Positions 1,674-31,912 of a stretch of DNA of 32,000 bases are shown one piece after another. The position numbers were made by a program, and so were the translations under genes. The notes beneath the pieces were generated by a model that saw only the letters and a list, made by a program, of their open reading frames with translations, made no database searches and had not been told where the DNA came from. Numbering within the stretch: the stretch's first letter is position 1; each line of letters opens with the position of its first letter. Source of the stretch: an uncultured Candidatus Saccharibacteria bacterium (GTDB lineage: Bacteria; Patescibacteriota; Minisyncoccia; JAHISW01; Tagabacteraceae); NCBI GenBank assembly GCA_964636095.1, contig CAZWRF010000002.1, positions 1-32,000 on the forward strand, read 5' to 3'.

Positions 1674-3736
1674 GTTTCAACAATAAGAAGTTTTTTATCT
1701 TTCAGTTCGTCCTCGGTTTTGCCGAAGGAGATTTTTGACCAAATTTCTTCGGTAACAAACGGCATAAAAGGGTGAAGGAGTTTTAGTGTGTCTGCAAGAA
1801 CATAGGCGAGAACTTTTTTTGCCTCGTCATCATCTCTTGTTTTTGCGTGCTCAATGTATTTGTCCGCAAATTCGTGCCAGGTAAAATCGTAAATGTCGTG
1901 AAGGGCCTGCCCCAACCTGTATTTTTCGATGTTTTTGTCGGTTTCTTTCATAAGTTTTTCCAGCTTCTTCAAAATATTCTTGTCCTCTTTTTGTAATTTT
2001 GAATTTGTCCCGATTTTGCTTTGCAAAATCGAGGATCCTCGATTTCCCTCGGAAATCGGGAGAAATTGATTGTTTCCGTTTTGTTGTAAAACAAAACGAG
2101 CAATGTTCCAAAGCTTGTTGCAGAATTTTTTACCCGCCAAAACATGTTCTTCGGCCCAGTGAATATCTTGGGCGCCCATCATCTGCCAAATAAGGCCAAA
2201 GCGCGTGGCATCCGCGCCGTATTTTTCCACGTAGTTCATGGGGTCTACTCCGGTGCCCAAAGACTTGGACATGCGCTTCCCCTCTCTGTTCAAAATCGTG
2301 GGGTGTATTACCACGTCTTTGAAAGGCTCCTCGTCCATAAATTCAATTCCTGAAAAAACCATTCTTGCCACCCAAAGATTTATTATGTCGCGGGCGGTTG
2401 AAAGCATGTTTGTGGGATAAAATTCTTTTCTGTCCTTGTCGTTCATGGTGGCAAAAGGCCACAGTGCCGAAGAAAACCAGGTGTCCAGTACATCTTCTGA
2501 ATCATCGGCCGGAATTTTGTGCCCCCACCATATTTGGCGCGATATACACCAGTCTTTTATGTTTGAAAGCCAATCAAGATATATCTTTTCCCACTTTTTG
2601 GGATGAAATTTTACTTTGCCCGACTTTACAGCTTTTACCGCCATTTCGGCCAACTCGTCCATTTTAAGAAACCACTGCATGCTGGGGATGTTTTCTATTG
2701 TGTTTCCACAACGGTAGCAGGTGGCAAGGTTGTGAGTGTAGTCCTCTATTTTTTCTATCAGCCCCATTTTTTGCATGTCTTCAACGATTTTTTCCCGAGC
2801 TTCTTTTGTTTTCATGCCGGCGTATTTACCGCAGTTTTCCATCATTCTTCCATATTCGTCGATTATTTTTTTGGAAGGAAGGCCGTGCCTTTCTGCAATT
2901 TCCGAGTCGATGATGCTGTGGGCCGGTGTTACTTTTACCGCTCCCGAACCAAATTCCGGGTCCACCGCTCTGTCGGCAACGACTTTTATCTTGAATTTGC
3001 CCAAAACTCCCGGAATCTCGTACTCCTTGCCTATCATGTCCTTGTATCTTTTGTCTTTCGGGTTTACCGCTACGGCCGTGTCTCCAAGTTTTGTTTCGGG
3101 GCGGGTGGTGGCTAAAGTAAACGGACCGTATTTGAGCCAATAGAGCTTTCCTTTTTCTTCTTTGTATTCAAGCTCCAGATCGGAAAGGCTTGTTTGGCAC
3201 CGGGTGCACCAGTTTATTACTCTTTCCGCCCGGTATATCCATCCTTTTTTCTGGTAGTGAAGAAAAACTTTCTTTACCCATTCCCGATAATCTTTGTCCA
3301 TGGTGAAGGCGGTTCTTGACCAGTCGCAGGAAGCTCCAATTTTTCTAAGCTGGTCCAAAATTTTGTTTCCGTATTCTTCTTTCCATTCCCACACTCTTTC
3401 AATAAATTTTTCCCTACCCAAATCGTGCCGACTTTTTCCTTCTTTTTTGAGCTGTTTTTCAACTACATTTTGGGTGGCAATGCCGGCATGGTCGGTGCCC
3501 GGAAGCCACAATGTTTTCCGCCCCTCCATTCTTTTTTTGCGTATCAAAATATCTTGGATAGTGGCATTTAGGGCGTGGCCCATGTGAAGGGAGCCGGTAA
3601 TATTTGGCGGAGGAATAACTATTGTATATGGCTTGCCTTTTCCTTGCGGCTTGAAATAGTCTCCTTTTTCCCAGGTTTCGTATATTTTTTCTTCAACTTT
3701 TTTCGGGTCGTAAGGACCTTCTATCTTTGCCGTCAT
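1661..3736 (-). CDS. valS: Valine--tRNA ligase (compact, 691 aa)
   Basis: Class I motifs PPPNITGSLHMGHAL (HIGH) and KRMSKSLG (KMSKS). CP1 editing-domain signatures TTRPETKLGDTAVAVNP and GSGAVKVTPAHS. DWCISRQIWWGHKIP motif. Confidence 0.9.
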   Translation of the reverse strand: MTAKIEGPYDPKKVEEKIYETWEKGDYFKPQGKGKPYTIVIPPPNITGSLHMGHALNATIQDILIRKKRMEGRKTLWLPGTDHAGIATQNVVEKQLKKEGKSRHDLGREKFIERVWEWKEEYGNKILDQLRKIGASCDWSRTAFTMDKDYREWVKKVFLHYQKKGWIYRAERVINWCTRCQTSLSDLELEYKEEKGKLYWLKYGPFTLATTRPETKLGDTAVAVNPKDKRYKDMIGKEYEIPGVLGKFKIKVVADRAVDPEFGSGAVKVTPAHSIIDSEIAERHGLPSKKIIDEYGRMMENCGKYAGMKTKEAREKIVEDMQKMGLIEKIEDYTHNLATCYRCGNTIENIPSMQWFLKMDELAEMAVKAVKSGKVKFHPKKWEKIYLDWLSNIKDWCISRQIWWGHKIPADDSEDVLDTWFSSALWPFATMNDKDRKEFYPTNMLSTARDIINLWVARMVFSGIEFMDEEPFKDVVIHPTILNREGKRMSKSLGTGVDPMNYVEKYGADATRFGLIWQMMGAQDIHWAEEHVLAGKKFCNKLWNIARFVLQQNGNNQFLPISEGNRGSSILQSKIGTNSKLQKEDKNILKKLEKLMKETDKNIEKYRLGQALHDIYDFTWHEFADKYIEHAKTRDDDEAKKVLAYVLADTLKLLHPFMPFVTEEIWSKISFGKTEDELKDKKLLIVETWPR

Positions 3737-3755
3737 AGATTAATTTTACTATATT

Positions 3756-4913
3756 TTAAGCCAATTTTAAATTACCGTCGGCCTTCAGGTCTTTTGCCGG
3801 CTTTTTTTCTTTGCTCCACCTAAAATATGCGGCCAGAGCCATCATGGCGGCGTTGTCGCCGGTAAAACTTGAATATGGAACGAGGAATGTTGAATGTGGA
3901 ATATTTTTTTTGACCTCTTTCTCTATTTGACGGCGGAGTTCTTTGTTTGCTGATACTCCGCCGGCCAAAATAACCGTTTTGGCCTTGTATTCTTTTGCCG
4001 CGCGGATAGTTTTTGATATTAGTACGTCAATTACCGCCTGCTGAAACTCATAGCAAATTTCTTCTTTTATTTTTGGGGTTAGTTTTTTGAGTTCTTTTGT
4101 TTTGTAGAGCACGGCGGTCTTTAGTCCGGAAAAAGAAAAATCATAATCTTTTGAATTTATCATCGGACGGGGAAATTGGAAGTTTTGAGCTTCGGAAACA
4201 AAATTTTGAAAACCGCTTATCCCTTTTTTCTTGCTTCGCTCGAAAAGCGCGCCCACACCTATGGTTTTCAAAATTTGTTTCCTGCGCTTTTCTGCGAGTC
4301 GTGAAATTTCGGGACCGCCGGGATATCCGAGCCCCAGCATTTTTGCCACCTTATCAAACGCTTCTCCGGCCGCGTCGTCTCTTGTTTCTCCCAAAATTTT
4401 ATATTTAAGAAAACCTTTCACCAATACAATCTGTGTATGCCCCCCGCTTACCAGAAGAGCAATAATTGGAAATTGAAAATTGGAAATTGAAAATTCTCCG
4501 TTTTTTTGCAAAAAAACGGAGTAGAGATGTCCCTCCAGGTGATTGATCGGTATCAGCGGCTTGTTCCATTTCGCTGCCAGCTCTCCGGCAAAGTTTATCC
4601 CTGTCCAAAGTGCCGGCTCCAGTCCCGGCCCGTTCACCACGGCGATCAGGTCTATTTTTGGAATTTGTTTGGAATTTGTGTTTTGTAATTTGTAATTTCC
4701 CAATTTGGCCTGCTTCAGAGCCCTGTTTAGTACTAGCGGTAGGTTTTTAATGTGTTCGCGCTTTGCCAGCATGGGCACTACCCCGCCCCACTTGGCGTGT
4801 ATTTTTACCTGAGAAGAAACCACGCTGGATAAAATGCGGAAACTGTTTTTCTTGCGCTCTAATATGGCAATGGCCGTCTCGTCGCAAGATGTCTCAATTG
4901 CTAAAATTCGCAT
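3756..4913 (-). CDS. tsaD: tRNA N6-adenosine threonylcarbamoyltransferase TsaD (Kae1/Gcp family), with low-complexity insertions
   Basis: ILAIETSCDETA N-terminus, metal-binding HLEGHL, LLVSGGHTQI, FSFSGLKTA, GGVSAN and GDNAAMMA motifs. Confidence 0.9.
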   Translation of the reverse strand: MRILAIETSCDETAIAILERKKNSFRILSSVVSSQVKIHAKWGGVVPMLAKREHIKNLPLVLNRALKQAKLGNYKLQNTNSKQIPKIDLIAVVNGPGLEPALWTGINFAGELAAKWNKPLIPINHLEGHLYSVFLQKNGEFSISNFQFPIIALLVSGGHTQIVLVKGFLKYKILGETRDDAAGEAFDKVAKMLGLGYPGGPEISRLAEKRRKQILKTIGVGALFERSKKKGISGFQNFVSEAQNFQFPRPMINSKDYDFSFSGLKTAVLYKTKELKKLTPKIKEEICYEFQQAVIDVLISKTIRAAKEYKAKTVILAGGVSANKELRRQIEKEVKKNIPHSTFLVPYSSFTGDNAAMMALAAYFRWSKEKKPAKDLKADGNLKLA

Positions 4914-5532: not shown

Positions 5533-6486
5533 ATGAAAAAAGCAACATTCCCGAGAATGGGAAAATACACAGAGGCGCTGGAGTTTTTTGCGTCAGAACT
5601 GGGGTTTGAACCAATAGTACCGCCCAAAACAACCCAGGAAACAATAAAACTTGGCGTAAGGCATAGTTCGGACATGGTTTGCTTCCCTTTCAAATCTACC
5701 CTGGGAAATTTGATACAAGGGCTTGAACGAGGAGCAGAGGTTATTATAGCCACGGGCGTAAATCCGTCCGACAAGCTTAGGGAAACTTGTCGGTTTGCCT
5801 TTTATTACCATATTCAAGAACAAATACTGAGGCGAATGGGGTATGATTTTGAAATGGCCTATATGAATGTGTATCTGAACGGAGGAGGACGGAAGATTTT
5901 GAATATTTTAAAAAAGACAAATCCCAAGCTTACATATTTTGATATAGCAAAAGCGGTAAAGAGATCTTTTGACAAGGTAAAGGAAATAGAAGAGCGTGAA
6001 TACAAATTTGAGAAGAAGGAAATAAATGTGGGGTTGGTGGGAGAAGTTTATACTCTTTGGGAAGAAGCCATCAACTACAATATTATAGACAAGCTTAGAA
6101 AGATGGGCGTTGGCGTTCATCTCTCGGTGAAGCTTTCCTGGTTTCTTAAAGAACAAATAGGCCGGGCCGATAAAAAAAAGGAGCTCCACGAAGAAGTGAA
6201 AAAATATTTTCCCAAAAAAACGGGAGGCCACGGCTTTGAAACTCTGTGCAACAGTATTTGGTACGCGAAAAACAACTTTGACGGCATCATTCATCTTCTT
6301 CCGTTATCGTGCATGCCGGAAACCTTGGTGGAAATGCCCCTAAACTTTATTTCCGAGGACTACAAAATACCCGTTTACAGATTTTCCATAGACGAAAACA
6401 GGTTTGAGGCGGGGTTTGATACCCGTCTGGAAACATTTATAAAGCTGTTAAAAAGAAATAAAAATGGATTATTGGCTGGGAATTGA
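5533..6486 (+). CDS. Acyl-CoA dehydratase activase-related protein (DUF2229-like)
   Basis: The N-terminal pattern FPRMGKYTEALEFFASELGFEPIVPP...DMVCFPFKSTLGNL resembles the CoA-enzyme-activase-associated DUF2229 domain (recognised from memory). Overlaps the downstream activase gene by 23 nt. Confidence 0.65.
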   Translation: MKKATFPRMGKYTEALEFFASELGFEPIVPPKTTQETIKLGVRHSSDMVCFPFKSTLGNLIQGLERGAEVIIATGVNPSDKLRETCRFAFYYHIQEQILRRMGYDFEMAYMNVYLNGGGRKILNILKKTNPKLTYFDIAKAVKRSFDKVKEIEEREYKFEKKEINVGLVGEVYTLWEEAINYNIIDKLRKMGVGVHLSVKLSWFLKEQIGRADKKKELHEEVKKYFPKKTGGHGFETLCNSIWYAKNNFDGIIHLLPLSCMPETLVEMPLNFISEDYKIPVYRFSIDENRFEAGFDTRLETFIKLLKRNKNGLLAGN

Positions 6487-8121: not shown

Positions 8122-9123
8122 GTGAAAGTTATTGAGAAAAAAAATCTGGAAAATTTGACCAAGGAATTGGCCAAAAAATTTTCCGTTGTAGCCCCCGTTA
8201 GAAGAGAAGACGGGGAATATGTTTTTTCAAAACTTGGCGAAGACTCTTCGCCCGATTTCAACTACCGCCCTACTGTTCTCTCGATAAAGCAGTTTTTCTT
8301 TCCTGCCAAGGAAGAGACCTTTGCTTTCGATACAAAAAAGAAAAAAGTTTTGCCTCAGGCAAGGCCTGAAAAAATTGTTTTATTTGGCCTCAATCTTCGC
8401 GATACGGAGGCCCTCGTTCAGCTTGACGAGATAATGAAAAAACCGAAGCCGGATTATTTTTATTTTCAGAAAAGAAATCTGGCCACGGTTGTTTCCATAA
8501 TAAACGTCACCGATTCCCTGCCCCATGTAGGCGTTGATCTTATTCTTGAAAAAGTAAACGACAAGGAATATAAGGCTACGCCGCTGACAAAAGAAGGGAG
8601 AAAAATTTTGGAAAGCAGGTATTTTAAAAATACAAAAAAAATAAAAATAAAAGTAAATCCGAAATCCAAAAAAATGGCCAAGCTTAGAGAGCTTCTTCTC
8701 GACCCGGAGCTTCTTAAAGACGCCGTTGAATGGTCATGGGAAGGTATACCTGAAATTTGGGACGATCTGGCGAAACAATGCCTCGGTTGCGGTATATGCA
8801 CTTATGTCTGTCCGTTATGTCATTGTTTTTCCGTTGAAGACAGGTGCGCGCTTAGCGGAGAAAAATGCACAAAAACAAGAGAGTGGGATGCGTGCACTCT
8901 TCCCGGTTTTGCTCAAATTACCGGCGGACACAATTTTCACCGCACCATTAAAGAAAGATACTACAACTGGTTTTTCCACAAGTTTGTCCGGGCCTACAAA
9001 GAATTCGGTAAATCGCAGTGTGTGGCTTGCGGAAGGTGCGCTATGTATTGCCCTGCCAGAATAGATATCGAAAAGGTTTTGGTTGACATTGTAAAAAAGT
9101 ACCAGTCAAAAGTAAAATTTTAA
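8122..9123 (+). CDS. hydB: Group 3b [NiFe]-hydrogenase (sulfhydrogenase-type) beta subunit, AsrA-like Fe-S protein
   Basis: Two ferredoxin-type Cys clusters, CLGCGICTYVCPLCHC and CVACGRCAMYCP. First gene in the beta-gamma-delta-alpha order typical of Pyrococcus-type sulfhydrogenase. GTG start. Confidence 0.8.
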   Translation: MKVIEKKNLENLTKELAKKFSVVAPVRREDGEYVFSKLGEDSSPDFNYRPTVLSIKQFFFPAKEETFAFDTKKKKVLPQARPEKIVLFGLNLRDTEALVQLDEIMKKPKPDYFYFQKRNLATVVSIINVTDSLPHVGVDLILEKVNDKEYKATPLTKEGRKILESRYFKNTKKIKIKVNPKSKKMAKLRELLLDPELLKDAVEWSWEGIPEIWDDLAKQCLGCGICTYVCPLCHCFSVEDRCALSGEKCTKTREWDACTLPGFAQITGGHNFHRTIKERYYNWFFHKFVRAYKEFGKSQCVACGRCAMYCPARIDIEKVLVDIVKKYQSKVKF

Positions 9124-9126
9124 AAA

Positions 9127-9957
9127 ATGAACAATATATATCTTCCCGAACAAGTAAAAGTGGCCGATATAAAACAGCTTTCGCGTGATGTGAAGCTTTT
9201 TCGCCTTAAGAAAAAGATAGGAAAGTTCAAAGCCGGCAGAAATAAGCTTGTTTTTACACCGGCCCAGTTTTTGCTTGTAGGTGTGTGGGGATACGGAGAA
9301 TCTCCGTTTGGCTGCGCTTCTTCGCCTTATGAAAAATCTTTTATTGACGTAGTAGTAAGAAATACCGGAGGCAAGGTCACTTCCGCTCTGCACAACAATG
9401 TTAAGAAAGGCGATGAAATTTCAATAAGAGGCCCTTTCGGCAATGGTTTTCCTCTTGAATTTTTTGAAGGCAAGGACATTGTTATGGCTACCGGGGGGTG
9501 CGGCATACCGCCCATAGCTGCTTTTATAGAATATGTAATAAAAAACAGGGAGAAGTTCGGCGAAGTCTACCTGCTTTACGGCGCGCGTACGCCCGCGGAT
9601 ATTTTAATGAAAGAAGACCTTAAAAGATGGGAAAAAAACATAAAAATAATTCTTACCATCGACAAGCCTCATCCGGAATGGAATGGGTGCGTAGGTTTTG
9701 TCACCGACATGGTGGATCAGATAAAAATAGACTCAAGAAGGGCCGTGGCTACCATGTGCGGACCCGGGCCGATGACGAACGCCCTGGAAAAAGTTTTGCG
9801 TCCGCTGGGTATTTCGGACAGAAGGATATTTGTTTCGGCAGAAAGAAAAATGCAGTGCGGAGTGGGAAGGTGCCAGCACTGTACCACGGGCGACAAATAC
9901 GTTTGCATGGACGGCCCTGTGTTTAATTTTGACGAAATAGATAAAAATTGGGATTAA
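9127..9957 (+). CDS. hydG: Group 3b hydrogenase gamma subunit (FAD/NAD(P)-binding oxidoreductase with C-terminal [2Fe-2S] motif)
   Basis: FNR-like fold motifs (GPFGNGF, ATGGCGIPP) and C-terminal CGVGRCQHCTTGDKYVCMDGPVF. Confidence 0.85.
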   Translation: MNNIYLPEQVKVADIKQLSRDVKLFRLKKKIGKFKAGRNKLVFTPAQFLLVGVWGYGESPFGCASSPYEKSFIDVVVRNTGGKVTSALHNNVKKGDEISIRGPFGNGFPLEFFEGKDIVMATGGCGIPPIAAFIEYVIKNREKFGEVYLLYGARTPADILMKEDLKRWEKNIKIILTIDKPHPEWNGCVGFVTDMVDQIKIDSRRAVATMCGPGPMTNALEKVLRPLGISDRRIFVSAERKMQCGVGRCQHCTTGDKYVCMDGPVFNFDEIDKNWD

Positions 9958-9958
9958 C

Positions 9959-10729
9959 ATGACAAAAAAAGAACTGCCAAAAGTAGCAATTTATGATTTT
10001 ACAGACTGTGAGGGGTGCGAAGTGAAGCTTGTTTCCCTTCGTGACAAGCTTCTTCCTCTTTTGAATCTTGTTGATATTGCCGACTGGCGCCTTGGGCAAG
10101 AAAGAAAAGACAAGGGGCCTTTTCTTGTTTCAATTATTGAAGGGACGCCCATTACTCAGCACGAGATAGACACGCTGAAACATCTTAGGGAAAATTCTAC
10201 TTACATTGTAGCTTTAGGCGCTTGCGCCTCTTTGGCCGGTATTCCCGGAATTATGAATAAAAAAGACAGAGAAAAGTGGCGAAAGAAAATTTATGGAAAA
10301 AACTACAAGGGAAAGGATATTGACGCTCTTCCCCTTCAGGCCTATGTAAAAGTGGATTTTTTCATTCACGGCTGTCCGGTGGATGAAGGCCAGCTTGAAA
10401 GAGTTTTGGAAGAGCTTCTTTCCGGAAAAACTCCTTCCTACAGGGGATATTCCGTTTGCTTTGAATGCAAGTTGGCGGGAAACAAATGCCGAATTGTAAA
10501 CGGTAAGCCGTGCCTGGGGCCCATAACTCAGGGCGGGTGCGGAGCTATCTGTGTTTCCGGCGGTTCACCCTGTTACGGCTGTTTTGGCCTGAGGGAAGAT
10601 GCCAATGTTGAAGGGCTTGTTAAAAGGCTGAAGAAAATCACCAATAAAAAGGAAATTGAAAGATACTTCACCATGTTCCACAATCAAATGCCCGAGTGGA
10701 AAGATAGGGTTAAAAAACTTCTCAAATAG
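9959..10729 (+). CDS. hydD: Group 3b [NiFe]-hydrogenase small (delta) subunit
   Basis: N-terminal DCEGCEV proximal-cluster motif, GACA, HGCP and a C-terminal Cys-rich region (CFECK...C...CLGPITQGGCGAICVSGGSPCYGCFG). 1-nt gap from hydG. Confidence 0.85.
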   Translation: MTKKELPKVAIYDFTDCEGCEVKLVSLRDKLLPLLNLVDIADWRLGQERKDKGPFLVSIIEGTPITQHEIDTLKHLRENSTYIVALGACASLAGIPGIMNKKDREKWRKKIYGKNYKGKDIDALPLQAYVKVDFFIHGCPVDEGQLERVLEELLSGKTPSYRGYSVCFECKLAGNKCRIVNGKPCLGPITQGGCGAICVSGGSPCYGCFGLREDANVEGLVKRLKKITNKKEIERYFTMFHNQMPEWKDRVKKLLK

Positions 10730-10746
10730 TTCAACAAACTTACTGT

Positions 10747-10786
10747 AAATAAAAAATGCCGGCCTGGTCCACGACCAAACCGGCAT
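10747..10786 (-). terminator. Strong intrinsic terminator, functional orientation on the minus strand
   Basis: Minus-strand hairpin ATGCCGG-TT-TGGTC-GTG-GACCA-GG-CCGGCAT followed by TTTTTTATTT. On the plus strand no T-run follows. Confidence 0.75.
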
Positions 10787-11030
10787 GTTGAAGGGCTCTG
10801 CTTCCCCTCTCTTCTTGGCTCCAGTGTGTGGCTTTTTATTTTTGTGGGTGCCTTCCCTTTGTGAGGTACACAAGACCGGACAAGTTGATTTAACAATCAA
10901 CGGATACACCTTCCCACGCTTTCGGGCTCGCCAGCTTTTGATTCGAATGTGTTTTAAAGTAGCGTCATAGCATGGCTTTTCTCTGGCTCCTTTGGTTTTT
11001 TGTTTTTGTCAAAAGGCCGTTTTTGACCTT
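10748..11030 (-). ncRNA. Candidate unclassified non-coding RNA (about 280 nt) in the hydD-hydA spacer
   Basis: Bounded by a near-consensus promoter (11038-11066) and the terminator at 10747-10786. No credible ORF. Local perfect hairpins at 11008-11027 and 10884-10901. GC-richer than the flanks by eye. Confidence 0.5.
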
Positions 11031-11037
11031 AGTTTGC

Positions 11038-11066
11038 ATTCTATATCAAAAAATGTTTCTTGTCAA
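11038..11066 (-). promoter_or_regulatory. Near-consensus sigma70-type promoter driving the candidate ncRNA
   Basis: Minus strand reads TTGACA (11066-11061), exactly 17 nt, TAGAAT (11043-11038). Confidence 0.6.
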
Positions 11067-11097
11067 TAGATAGTAATTTTTAAATTTTTTGGAATTT

Positions 11098-11106
11098 TGG
11101 TAGAAT
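11098..11106 (+). promoter_or_regulatory. Candidate extended -10 promoter for hydA (TGGTAGAAT)
   Basis: TGGTAGAAT lies 15 nt upstream of the hydA ATG, back-to-back with the minus-strand promoter. Confidence 0.4.
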
Positions 11107-11121
11107 AGAGATACATAAAAA

Positions 11122-12327
11122 ATGGCAAATATTACCGACAAATACATTACAAAGATTGAAGGGCATGGGAGCCTGGATGTTGATTGGGGAAAAAATAAAG
11201 TAAAGCTCAATATTCACGAAGGAGAACGCCTTTTTGAAGGGCTTCTCGTGGGCAGAAGCATAGGAGAAGCCTACTGGATTACTCCGAGGATTTGCGGGGT
11301 GTGCCCTATTGCCCACAACCTGGCTTCCGTCCGGGCTTGCGAGGACGGTTACGAGGTAAAAGTAAGTCCGAAAACTGAGCTTTTGCGCCAGCTTATGGAT
11401 TGCGGGCAAATGATACAAAGCCACGTTTTGCACATGGCATTTCTTGCGCTTCCCGACTATTTGGGAATTGACCGAGCTACCGAACTGGCAAAAAAGAATC
11501 CGAAAGTTTTTAAAGTAGTTTTGGATCTCAAAGAAGTTTCCGATGATATTGCTTATGTTGTGGCCGGGAGGAACGTTCACCCTACTACTATCACAATCGG
11601 AGGTTTTCACAAAATTCCCGAAAGAAAAGAGCTTGAAAACTTGCTTAAAAAAATAAAGAATACAAAAAAGGCGGCGAAGATCTTTATGAAGCTTTGCATT
11701 GGTGTAAAATACCCCGCCCTTAAGGCCGATTTTGAGCTTGTAGCTCAGAACGGGAAAAATATTTTATCGAGCAAAGACAAAAAAGTTTCCATAAAAGATT
11801 ACAAAAAAACCATTACGGAAGAAATTAAGACCTACTCAACGGCCAAGTTCGGCACCTACAAGCACCGCGAGATGATGGTGGGCGCTCTTGCCAGAATGTA
11901 TTTTGAGCTCAAAGACAAAAAAATGCGCTCTCTTCTGGATTTTGAAAATCCCTTCTACAACAACATGGCCCAGGGAATAGAAATATATCTTTACCACAAG
12001 AAGGCGGAGGAAATTCTTGAAAAGTTTTTGGGCGGCAATTTGAGCTTTCCCGTTGCCGAACCGAAGAAAAAGAAAGGGCCATACGAAGGAATAGGGGCAC
12101 ACGAAGCTCCCAGGGGAGGGCTTTACCACGAGTATCATTTCAACAGCAAGGGAGATATTACCTACGCTAATATTATTACCCCTACCGTTCAAAACCTCAC
12201 CTCAATAGAAAACTGCGCCAACAGGCTGATGAAGCAGTACGGGGACAAATCCCAAAAAGAAAAAGAGCACCTCATGGAGATGCTCGTCCGGGCCTACGAT
12301 CCGTGCATTACTTGTTCGGTTCACTAA
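11122..12327 (+). CDS. hydA: Group 3b [NiFe]-hydrogenase large (alpha) subunit, ending exactly at the C-terminal His
   Basis: N-terminal Ni-Fe ligand motif RICGVCPIAH and C-terminal DPCITCSVH followed directly by TAA. Confidence 0.9.
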   Translation: MANITDKYITKIEGHGSLDVDWGKNKVKLNIHEGERLFEGLLVGRSIGEAYWITPRICGVCPIAHNLASVRACEDGYEVKVSPKTELLRQLMDCGQMIQSHVLHMAFLALPDYLGIDRATELAKKNPKVFKVVLDLKEVSDDIAYVVAGRNVHPTTITIGGFHKIPERKELENLLKKIKNTKKAAKIFMKLCIGVKYPALKADFELVAQNGKNILSSKDKKVSIKDYKKTITEEIKTYSTAKFGTYKHREMMVGALARMYFELKDKKMRSLLDFENPFYNNMAQGIEIYLYHKKAEEILEKFLGGNLSFPVAEPKKKKGPYEGIGAHEAPRGGLYHEYHFNSKGDITYANIITPTVQNLTSIENCANRLMKQYGDKSQKEKEHLMEMLVRAYDPCITCSVH

Positions 12328-12364
12328 TTTTTTCCAACAAAATCATCTTTTTGTCTCCGGGCAA

Positions 12365-12392
12365 GGGGAAGTCCTTACATCCCCTCTATTTT
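12365..12392 (+). terminator. Weak candidate terminator after hydA
   Basis: GGGGA-10 nt-TCCCC followed by TCTATTTT. A second imperfect long hairpin follows at about 12385-12423. Confidence 0.3.
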
Positions 12393-12456
12393 AAATGGGC
12401 TCGCTAAGCTCGCCCAAAATAGTCTCCCTTTGGAGTCGTCAAAAAGTCGATTTTGT

Positions 12457-13200
12457 TTACAAAGTTACGTTAGTCAAATCCAGATGGAACTTGGTCCAAA
12501 AGGCCAGGTTGTTTTTTTGTCTTTCGGTTATTTTGTCGCAAACATAATCCCAGTGGAGGGACACATTGTCTCCCATTTTTATTGAAGGGTCAAGCAGAAA
12601 ATACCCTCTAGTTTCTTTTTTTCCGAATTGCAGTTTTTTGTTTTTGAATTCAATTGGCGTATACTCTACCAAAGCTATACCCGAGCCAGGATTTTTCTGC
12701 CCACTAATAAAATCGGTGGTTAACACCCGGCCTCCCTTTATACTGCAGTTGTTTATTGTTTCAATGAGCTTGTCTTTTGCTCCCGATCTTAAAAATCCGG
12801 TCCGCCTGTAAATATCCAGGGCGTGAAATGCGTGAAAAGGCTTTGCTTTCGGCACCGAACCCGATATAAGCCAAGACCAATCTTTTTTTTTCATTCTGTC
12901 TTTGAATCTGTTTTCCAGATGACTGTAAAAATCTTTCATCTCAACTTTTTCAAGAAGCTCGTTTCCGAGCCAGTAAGCTTCAACCACTCTGTAGTCAAAA
13001 ATATCTTTTATCCCGCTGCTAAAGGCTATAAGCCGAAGGTAAGGAACCGCTCCTTCAAATTGAAGAAGCAGATTTTTCAGCTCAACGGATTTTTCCTTTT
13101 CGCTTAACGCACCAAACAATGCGGCATTATCTTCAGGCCCGCAATATTTGAGCAAATTTGGCGGAAAGGCGTATTTTGCGCAGGTTAAGAGCCCGTCCAT
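12457..13200 (-). CDS. Conserved-looking hypothetical protein (247 aa), last gene of the hypC-eamA operon
   Basis: Long ORF with non-repetitive composition. N-terminal CAKYAFPPNLLKYCGPE motif. Its start overlaps the eamA stop by 16 nt. No family confidently recognised. Confidence 0.6.
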   Translation of the reverse strand: MDGLLTCAKYAFPPNLLKYCGPEDNAALFGALSEKEKSVELKNLLLQFEGAVPYLRLIAFSSGIKDIFDYRVVEAYWLGNELLEKVEMKDFYSHLENRFKDRMKKKDWSWLISGSVPKAKPFHAFHALDIYRRTGFLRSGAKDKLIETINNCSIKGGRVLTTDFISGQKNPGSGIALVEYTPIEFKNKKLQFGKKETRGYFLLDPSIKMGDNVSLHWDYVCDKITERQKNNLAFWTKFHLDLTNVTL

Positions 13201-26009: not shown

Positions 26010-26083
26010 CGGGGATTGGCCCAATTGGCTAGGGCACTCGCTTTGGGAGCGAGAGGTTGCCGGTTCAAGTCCGGCATCCCCGA
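26010..26083 (+). tRNA. tRNA-Pro (anticodon UGG)
   Basis: Acceptor CGGGGAT/ATCCCCG (C1-G72, as in bacterial tRNA-Pro), D arm GCCC-AATTGGCTA-GGGC, anticodon arm CTCGC-TTTGGGA-GCGAG, T arm GCCGG-TTCAAGT-CCGGC. No encoded CCA. Confidence 0.9.
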
Positions 26084-27120: not shown

Positions 27121-27133
27121 CATTTTTGTCTTG

Positions 27134-27204
27134 TGCGGGATAAGGGAGTCGAACCCTTCACCTCAGTTTGGAAAACTGATATTATACCGATTAACTAATC
27201 CCGC
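27134..27204 (-). tRNA. tRNA-Gly (anticodon UCC)
   Basis: 71-nt cloverleaf on the minus strand. Acceptor GCGGGAT/ATCCCGC, D arm GTTA-ATCGGTA-TAAT, anticodon arm TCAGT-TTTCCAA-ACTGA, T arm AAGGG-TTCGACT-CCCTT. No encoded CCA. Confidence 0.9.
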
Positions 27205-31725: not shown

Positions 31726-31797
31726 GGCCCCATCGTCTAACGGCCAGGACGCCACTCTTTCAAGGTGGAAATCGGGGTTCGATTCCCCGTGGGGCCA
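31726..31797 (+). tRNA. tRNA-Glu (anticodon UUC)
   Basis: Acceptor GGCCCCA/TGGGGCC, D arm GTCT-AACGGCCA-GGAC, anticodon arm CCACT-CTTTCAA-GGTGG, T arm CGGGG-TTCGATT-CCCCG. No encoded CCA. Confidence 0.9.
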
Positions 31798-31824
31798 CAA
31801 TTTACTATTATCCTGAGTAGTTTT

Positions 31825-31912
31825 GGAGGATTGGCCGAGTGGTTTAAGGCGCCGCTCTCGAAAAGCGGTTGGGGGAAACCCCTCACAGGTTCAAATCCTG
31901 TATCCTCCGCCA
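31825..31912 (+). tRNA. tRNA-Ser (anticodon CGA), class II with long variable arm, CCA encoded
   Basis: Acceptor GGAGGAT/ATCCTCC, anticodon arm CCGCT-CTCGAAA-AGCGG, variable arm GGGG-GAAA-CCCC, T arm ACAGG-TTCAAAT-CCTGT, then GCCA. Confidence 0.9.

Follow-up and report, generated by a model that had tools for sequence, protein, structure and literature searches.

In the 32,000-nucleotide stretch of an uncultured Candidatus Saccharibacteria bacterium analysed here (contig CAZWRF010000002.1; called the window below, and the reference for all positions unless another locus is named), the genes hydD and hydA of a group-3b-type hydrogenase cluster are separated by a spacer of 392 bp (10730-11121). 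On its minus strand this spacer holds a non-coding unit with a predicted promoter and a predicted terminator, both of which are conserved in a relative. As judged from sequence comparison and predicted pairing, the 3' half of the transcript (10790-10917) corresponds to a structured-RNA core that is conserved and was found here almost only in genomes of the Candidate Phyla Radiation (CPR, Patescibacteria). These findings are best accounted for, at slightly less than even confidence, by a structured RNA of a new family that stands alone, acts in trans and has been inserted at a variable junction between genes.

The predicted minus-strand transcription unit

The unit is made up of the following elements.

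11038-11066, minus strand: sigma-70-type promoter, TTGACA (11066-11061), 17 nt, TAGAAT (11043-11038); 11 of 12 consensus matches, inferred start at about 11031
10746-11031, minus strand: predicted non-coding transcript of about 286-287 nt between promoter and terminator
10981-11030, minus strand: 5' domain, with either the hairpin AAGGUC/GGCCUU (11013-11030) or a pairing of GGCCUUUUG with CAAAGGAGCC (10981-10993)
10746-10786, minus strand: intrinsic terminator, a 14-bp stem (10786-10756, 8 G-C pairs) followed by the U-run TTTTTATTTA

In a consensus scan of positions 9500-12500 this promoter scored best of six promoter-like sites, and the terminator stem was by far the longest stem; its U-tail is present on the minus strand only. 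Together the two signals have the make-up of an intrinsic (Rho-independent) transcription unit. Both had been named in an initial annotation of this DNA, along with a length of about 280 nt, which agrees with the approximately 286 nt counted from 11031 to 10746.

The closest foreign locus with context, L001 (source sample ENA ERZ23498388), encodes a HydA that is 77% identical to that of the window, and its hydD-hydA spacer measures 349 bp. The HydA relatives are CPR/Patescibacteria proteins; a scan of genome contigs with HydA peptides gave no match. The spacer of L001 aligns with that of the window on the minus strand, including TTGACA, the -10 element (TATACAAT) and the terminator, which is kept with G-U/A-U changes. 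Mismatches between the two spacers are spread over the codon positions as 26/20/20, the indels (2, 8, 3, 6, 3, 1, 6 and 1 nt) break the frame, and no reading frame is conserved when the window and L001 are compared in all six frames. Because there is no codon periodicity, no intact frame and no conserved open reading frame (ORF), the unit is regarded as non-coding, as the initial annotation had proposed from the lack of a credible ORF in the spacer; the relative shows compensatory changes and no codon-like conservation.

The predicted 287-nt RNA folds at -81.6 kcal/mol (z = -2.3 against shuffles), and the fold of the plus strand is unremarkable by the same comparison (z = -0.8). Applied to the window together with L001, RNAalifold recovered the terminator and three stems described below, namely stem A with a compensatory change from G-C to A-U, the first hairpin of the insertion, and P3. 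In the 5' domain one compensatory change, from G-C to U-A, separates the window from L001. Two local hairpins had been pointed out earlier: that at 10884-10901 is present in the minimum-free-energy fold, and the other, GTCAAAA/TTTTGAC (11008-11027), exists in the window but is not conserved in L001, where AAGGYY/GGCCUU, or GGCCUUUU paired with AAAGGAGCC, is kept in its place. The claim that the body is richer in G+C than its surroundings holds against the promoter-side flank (0.22-0.36) but not against coding DNA, to which the 0.46-0.51 of the RNA body is similar.

The window (10965-10993) and L001 have in common a Shine-Dalgarno-like AAAGGAG which is followed, 13-14 nt on, by AUG-CUN-UGA (Met-Leu-stop), and GGAGG occurs near the 5' end of several other family members. 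The pairing of GGCCUUUUG with CAAAGGAGCC would hide AAAGGAG. Since RNAalifold pairs AAAGGAGCC with GGCCUUUU, with one compensatory change, the block may be structural.

A pseudoknotted core with covarying stems

The conserved core runs, in order, through the 5' strand of stem A, 1-5 nt, GUAUCC-AGGG, 1-2 nt, the 5' strand of P2, the 3' strand of stem A, an A-rich linker of 3-14 nt, the 3' strand of P2, (A)CACACUGGAGCC, the 5' strand of P3, GG-AAGCAGAG-CC and the 3' strand of P3. It occupies 65-85 nt, and as P2 crosses stem A the two form an H-type pseudoknot. A further pairing, P4, can be drawn between UCCAG in the loop of stem A and a downstream CUGGA, and it shows one compensatory change. In the window the parts of the core are placed as follows.

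10913-10917, minus strand: stem A 5' strand GUGGG, paired with 10844-10848 (GUGAG/CUCAC in L001); covariation across the family
10902-10907, minus strand: GUAUCC, near-invariant; its UCC starts P4
10859-10901, minus strand: insertion of 43 nt with two hairpins, which splits GUAUCC from AGGG; seen in the window and L001 only
10855-10858, minus strand: AGGG, near-invariant; its AG completes the P4 5' strand
10850-10852, minus strand: P2 5' strand GGC, in the loop of stem A, paired with 10830-10832
10844-10848, minus strand: stem A 3' strand CCCAC; covariation across the family
10833-10843, minus strand: loop 3 of the H-type pseudoknot, a linker that measures 3-14 nt and is rich in A in every member
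10817-10832, minus strand: P2 3' strand GCC (10830-10832), then ACACACUGGAGCC (10817-10829), in which CUGGA is the P4 3' strand
10790-10809, minus strand: P3 hairpin GAGG-GG-AAGCAGAG-CC-CUUC, with a near-invariant loop and four covarying pairs

The window copy thus has stem A enclosing GUAUCC-AGGG, P2 across the A-rich linker, and ACACACUGGAGCC followed by the P3 loop, that is, all the features by which membership of the new family (covariance model R1, below) was judged.

Pairs were counted in a hand-made alignment of 18 distinct copies, with N for gaps. Over stem A, P2 and P3, 99.4% of the cells are standard pairs, compared with 73.9% in shuffles, and changes on both sides are found in 15 of the 25 pairs; P2 covaries at four pairs across the family. 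The covariation score amounts to 0.432 against 0.106 in shuffles, and none of 500 shuffles reached 0.432. With the partners slid by 1-3 columns, pairing was seen in 20-48% of the cells. Five G-U cells and no A-C cell were counted, which fixes the transcribed strand.

It is very improbable that the spacer is a decayed gene, a gene for a small protein or an inert scar of a mobile element. For such an origin speak the short ORFs in the 5' parts of some members, the AAAGGAG with its AUG-CUN-UGA kept in the window and L001, and a 13-nt direct repeat that brackets the whole RNA unit and is weakly kept in L001.

10746-10758: direct repeat TAAATAAAAAATG, with its partner TACATAAAAAATG at 11112-11124 ending in the hydA start codon; 12 of 13 positions identical

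The conserved 'ORF' is, however, two codons long, the absence of periodicity and the frame-breaking indels contradict coding, and promoter and terminator are maintained in L001. Moreover, compensatory changes preserve the core in CPR lineages that are distant from each other, which argues for selection on RNA structure. The repeat itself may be an insertion scar or a chance match in AT-rich DNA and is not convincing as the end of a mobile element; nothing else was found when such ends were sought around the unit.

Distribution of the family

The pattern used to scan metagenomes, CACTGGAGCC N2-20 GGAAGCAGAGCC, was made of two blocks that are conserved in both the window and L001. Among the 18 loci returned, 12 share GUAUCCAGGG about 30-45 nt upstream, outside the pattern, and the other six were rejected as chance matches in high-GC coding DNA. 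The same approach applied to one genome per species (185,579 species genomes) gave 30 loci, six of them true, in metagenome-assembled genomes (MAGs) labelled Vogelbacteria, Kerfeldbacteria, Saccharibacteria (two), Parcubacteria and Bathyarchaeia (one). Metagenomes and genomes together supplied 16 distinct copies of the core beyond those of the window and L001. Two scans of viral contigs produced chance coding matches or nothing, and BLAST against GenBank phages and plasmids found no match. GTDB holds thousands of CPR species. The family is, by these searches, rare, yet it extends across distant CPR lineages with an almost unchanged core.

The copy labelled Candidatus Bathyarchaeia (L058, DATGZC010000036.1) is a canonical example of an RNA otherwise seen in CPR genomes only, and mis-binning or horizontal transfer is the likely cause. 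One false match of the pattern scan is explained by an unrelated hairpin repeat present twice in a Bradyrhizobium MAG (L048, 4456-4550 and 6841-6874), which contains CUGGAGCC...GGAAGCAGAGCC.

The covariance model R1 was built from the first 16 copies; the window, itself part of this training set, scores 52.3 bits (10790-10920) and is aligned across its insertion. R1 also finds two copies that lie outside the search patterns, at L039 24-98 (31.8 bits) and L059 4224-4300 (28.5 bits). The latter reads GUGUCC-AAGG ... CACAUUGGAGCC, so that the terminal G-C of P4 is replaced by A-U, a compensatory change. In both copies the P3 loop is changed at position 10 only, and in L039 a change at position 11 gives a G-U wobble as well.

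Each of these two loci has a second copy on the same strand. In L039 the copies at 24-98 and 1486-1560 flank a ThiF-like gene, and in L059 those at 4224-4300 and 6252-6317 flank ORFs of 450 and 92 aa. About 330 nt are common to the two copies of L059, 5' and 3' domains included. L012, L015 and L016 have a common 3' domain, and it can be said that subfamilies carry large 5' and 3' domains of their own. Downstream of the core, L057 (about 6130-6260, minus strand) and L058 (about 3590-3720) have CCUCAUCCGAGU, a long covarying hairpin and then AUUCAGA(U/G)GAGGG; this second conserved element may belong to the RNA as a 3' domain.

Comparison with known RNA families

An Rfam scan, suggested in the initial annotation, was run with Rfam 15 (4227 models; gathering-score and E-value scans) and gave no match at the RNA in the window or in 15 member loci (duplicates L019, L023 and L039 counted separately), nor did any weak match recur there. 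The only Rfam matches in the scanned member loci were tRNAs and one hammerhead adjoining the RNA, and the scan of the hyd relatives returned nothing at the RNA. Models of the signal recognition particle (SRP) RNA, 6S RNA, RNase P RNA and transfer-messenger RNA (tmRNA) had no match at E <= 10 in the window, L059 and nine other member loci, and ARAGORN found no tmRNA in the window, where it lists five tRNAs, none of them in the spacer. The earlier dismissal of tmRNA, RNase P RNA and SRP RNA by eye therefore agrees with the searches. 6S RNA, which had been left open, is excluded by the missing model match, the pseudoknotted fold and the rarity of the family.

A divergent housekeeping RNA of one of these four kinds, missed by Rfam in CPR genomes, is accordingly given hardly any weight. 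Length and strong promoter would suit it, and the P3 loop GGAAGCAG(A)GCC resembles a strand of SRP helix 8, which reads GGAAGCAGCC. Nevertheless, the nucleotides flanking GGAAGCAG covary as a stem and the pseudoknot fits neither 6S nor SRP RNA, and an RNA in six of 185,579 species genomes, with two copies on two of the contigs, is neither universal nor single-copy. For SRP RNA in particular, the four nucleotides before GGAAGCAG covary with the 3-4 nt after it and pair, in four covarying pairs, with the nucleotides that follow AGAGCC, so that a stem is formed and not a tetraloop; the segment likened to the SRP tetraloop is 11 nt long in the window. 6S RNA was likewise rejected on the unpaired ends of the pseudoknotted core and the occasional second copy; it resembles the present RNA in having its own promoter and terminator and in overall length, and differs in being near-universal and single-copy and in forming a long, irregular hairpin whose ends are paired and whose centre opens into a bubble. 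The P4 strands of RNase P RNA, AGGAAAGUCC and ACAGAANNCGGCUUA, are missing from the sequence. Compared by eye, the cobalamin riboswitch, loop B of the hairpin ribozyme, twister and P4 of RNase P have short motifs that look alike, but order and topology differ and no model matches.

Parallels in general character are offered by the orphan 'ornate' non-coding RNAs of bacteria (the raiA motif RNA, OLE, HEARO and ROOL/GOLLD), which are also stand-alone, strongly conserved, pseudoknotted and lineage-restricted, with a variable periphery and uninformative neighbours. In contrast to them, the RNA described here is smaller (about 170-400 nt with its peripheral domains), CPR-centred and much rarer, and it has no match in Rfam 15. 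Full-text literature searches with sequence strings and for CPR non-coding RNAs and ribozyme classes did not find the motif described. At the level of RNA families it is rated as new, as it was not found in Rfam 15 or in the searchable literature.

Genomic context, possible ligand sensing and possible self-cleavage

An all-against-all BLASTP comparison of the neighbouring ORFs found no family common across lineages. The neighbours that could be identified are ThiF-like, HNH endonuclease, RecG and, named from sequence, apparent toxin-antitoxin genes; many are of unknown family and no hydrogenase is among them. By our own ORF calls a co-oriented gene lies downstream of 9 of 17 copies and is lacking in seven, the window and L001 included, with one copy cut by a contig end, which is about what chance would give. 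Most copies are ended by their own hairpin or terminator. Unrelated neighbours, own ends and duplicates all point to a self-contained RNA of the accessory genome, and not to a cis-regulator of one gene or an antisense RNA of the hyd genes.

The Kerfeldbacteria-type copies have as their neighbour a ThiF-like gene of a very conserved family, and four other loci with this gene have no RNA. The 227-aa ThiF-like protein is 67-91% identical over more than 120 clusters. Its operons are bordered by gene-free gaps of 1-1.9 kb (L062 1356-3217 and 6942-7895; L064 1360-2889 and 6669-7660), in which no Rfam match, no R1 match, no long ORF and no mutual similarity were detected.

The core has a form that is typical of small aptamers, SAM-II and preQ1-II among them: an H-type pseudoknot in which the third loop is A-rich and the junctions are invariant. 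The RNA could on this model be a ligand sensor, either as an aptamer carried within a small RNA or as an orphan riboswitch, in which the ligand would decide on termination or on how much of the RNA is available. The window core is followed at once by a terminator, and in L013, whose copy at 955-1036 is a canonical member, the terminator stem overlaps GCAGAGCC, a conserved part of the P3 loop. In L059 each of the two copies precedes an ORF that has a Shine-Dalgarno sequence, at a distance of about 100 nt, and is followed by hairpins that exclude one another. The pseudoknot form with its conserved junctions and the terminator directly behind the core are features in common with the H-type aptamers and the small RNAs that bear riboswitches (Listeria SreA, Enterococcus EutX); as in those small RNAs, a downstream gene is dispensable. 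Nonetheless, the window terminator is clear of the core, overlap of this kind was seen in L013 only, the downstream genes share no family and seven of the 17 copies have none in their orientation. Compared with SAM-II and preQ1-II, the present RNA has no consistent downstream class and no Rfam match, and its first loop of about 15 nt itself pairs downstream, forming P4. Ligand sensing is for these reasons considered improbable.

A self-cleaving ribozyme, whose pseudoknotted core of 65-85 nt would cut its own transcript, is unlikely too, although it deserves more credit than the sensor. Size and style are those of the small nucleolytic ribozymes, with pairing of a loop to a downstream strand past an A-rich linker, a second hairpin and invariant junctions. 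The distribution is sparse (six true matches in 185,579 species genomes) and still reaches distant CPR lineages, and pairs of same-strand copies flank genes in L039 and L059. A type III hammerhead (Rfam Hammerhead_3, 38.4 bits, E = 8e-5, cut by the contig end) stands at L055 1-54 on the minus strand, directly after the core and a hairpin; its cleavage after ...GACCCACUGUC would set the 3' end of that RNA and replace the terminator. In 2015 Weinberg et al. reportedly discovered twister-sister, hatchet and pistol by searching near hammerhead and twister ribozymes. These three classes and twister itself resemble the core in compactness, in loop-downstream pairing over an A-rich linker, in invariant junctions, in patchiness and, for one copy, in the hammerhead neighbour. 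Their conserved sequences differ from those of the core, however, and no Rfam ribozyme model matches it even weakly. No cleavage site can be named, a self-cleaving RNA would not obviously need a hammerhead neighbour to set its end, and the strong promoter, 110-nt 5' domain and terminator of the window copy are unusual for self-cleaving motifs, as are the large lineage-specific 5' and 3' domains when set against RNAs of the pistol or twister type.

The hyd locus and the antisense reading

The ORF map and a Pfam scan of the window give the gene order hydB-G-D-A.

8122-9123: hydB, Pfam Fer4
9127-9957: hydG, Pfam FAD/NAD-binding
9959-10729, plus strand: hydD, small subunit, Pfam Oxidored_q6; convergent with the RNA gene
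11122-12327, plus strand: hydA, NiFe large subunit, Pfam NiFeSe_Hases; divergent from the RNA gene
11079-11106, plus strand: hydA promoter-like site TTTAAA-16-TGgTAGAAT, with the extended -10 TGGTAGAAT at 11098-11106; back to back with the RNA promoter

The extended -10 of hydA and its back-to-back position were already part of the initial annotation, and in L001 it has a counterpart, TGGTAAAAT, at the matching place. From the -10 to the ATG there are 15 nt in the window (TGGTAGAAT, 11098-11124) and 10 nt in L001 (TGGTAAAAT, about 3975-4003), in neither case with a Shine-Dalgarno sequence, and hydA may for this reason be translated from a leaderless or near-leaderless mRNA.

Arrangements differ among the relatives. 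In L005 a 468-aa HisKA_7TM gene (2410-3816) lies between hydD and hydA, in L006 the junction measures 53 bp, and in L003 and L007 hydA is preceded by cdaA or murC-like genes, apart from hydD. Together with L001, these loci indicate that the hydD-hydA junction is variable and that hydA is regularly an independent unit. Between hydG and hydD, L001 has a 222-aa gene of unknown family and a PF05635 (23S_rRNA_IVP) gene (1806-2842). Run without filters, R1 found no second copy in the window and none in the hyd loci L003 and L005-L007. Two further ORF-free units, each with a promoter at one end and a terminator at the other, were noted in L003 (2440-2630, minus strand) and L007 (1480-1700, minus strand), immediately upstream of hydA and on the strand opposite to it. 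Neither has an Rfam or R1 match, and their sequences are related neither to one another nor to that of the window RNA.

The initial annotation had proposed that the RNA pairs with a read-through transcript of hydBGD-hydA and so uncouples or processes the expression of the catalytic subunit. Like the cis-antisense RNAs found in operons, the RNA is opposite in orientation and fully complementary to the read-through, which is trivially true of any such unit. It sits between hydD and hydA, is kept there in L001, has a terminator whose U-tail on the minus strand only would allow read-through on the plus strand, and convergent transcription could interfere with hydD. Despite these points, cis-antisense control is quite improbable, a shade more so than ligand sensing. 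The predicted transcript (10746-11031) falls wholly between 10729 and 11122 and overlaps no coding sequence, of hydD or of hydA, and no ribosome-binding site. Its conserved part is a family motif that occurs away from any hydrogenase, the compensatory changes show selection on intramolecular pairs, which antisense pairing does not need, and this conservation is independent of context. In addition, hydA has a conserved promoter of its own, and among closer as well as more distant relatives the unit is missing from the junction in L005 and L006, and hydA is elsewhere in L003 and L007. As neighbourhoods differ between members and about half have no co-oriented gene downstream, an antisense side effect on the hyd genes could be incidental at most.

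Outside the spacer, the window has five tRNA genes, whose stems are rich in G+C (genome about 43% G+C): 4-78 (Arg-TCT), 26010-26083 (Pro-TGG), 27133-27204 (Gly-TCC), 31726-31798 (Glu-TTC) and 31825-31912 (Ser-CGA).

Weighing the proposed stand-alone RNA

The stand-alone, trans-acting RNA is thus preferred to the alternatives above. Such an RNA would be made as a discrete molecule, and the near-consensus promoter and strong terminator suggest that it would probably be abundant and stable. It would act alone and in trans, by way of invariant purine-rich strands that are held by the pseudoknots. Its place in the hyd cluster would be an accident of insertion at a variable junction, which would leave hydBGD and hydA as separate transcription units and make any antisense effect secondary.

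As to its activity, the pseudoknots may present the purine-rich strands as a binding platform for a partner protein, by analogy with small RNAs that serve as scaffolds of RNA-protein particles; this is a tentative proposal, believed a little less firmly than the stand-alone RNA as such. Catalysis and sensing of a small ligand are the next options. That the core, with stem A, P2, P4, P3 and the conserved strings GUAUCCAGGG, ACACACUGGAGCC and GGAAGCAGAGCC, would be the catalytic or ligand-binding centre of a new RNA class is rather unlikely. In its most striking version it would be a self-cleaving ribozyme of a new class, carried along with the accessory genome of CPR bacteria and standing beside a hammerhead in one genome.

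Several points weigh against this explanation. Promoter, start site and terminator are predictions from sequence. The alignment was fitted by hand to the proposed structure, which inflates the percentage of pairing; this concern is reduced, not removed, by the control with slid partners and by the two copies found independently. Of about 27 invariant core positions, 20 were fixed by the search patterns, so that conservation is overstated and sampling is limited to copies that match the patterns. In the window itself P2 has only 3 bp and the core is interrupted by the 43-nt insertion, as in L001, and the window copy could be an altered or weakened version of the family RNA. A gene co-occurring with the RNA, or a partner protein, was not found among the neighbours, and the protein scaffold is a preference among options and not a result.

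Significance

A large part of bacterial diversity belongs to the CPR/Patescibacteria, whose genomes are tiny and whose non-coding RNAs are very little known. A core preserved near letter-for-letter across Saccharibacteria, Parcubacteria-type lineages and Kerfeldbacteria carries what is usually the mark of catalysis, ligand binding or protein assembly, and with its 65-85 nt it is small enough for direct bench work, for which the window copy offers a natural expression unit. For annotation, the reading of the hyd locus is corrected: in this lineage the genes of the 3b hydrogenase cluster do not form a single operon, since hydA has its own promoter, and insertions collect at the hydD-hydA junction. 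Even if the RNA should prove to be no more than a small RNA specific to its lineage, a new RNA family would still have been gained and the reading of this locus corrected.

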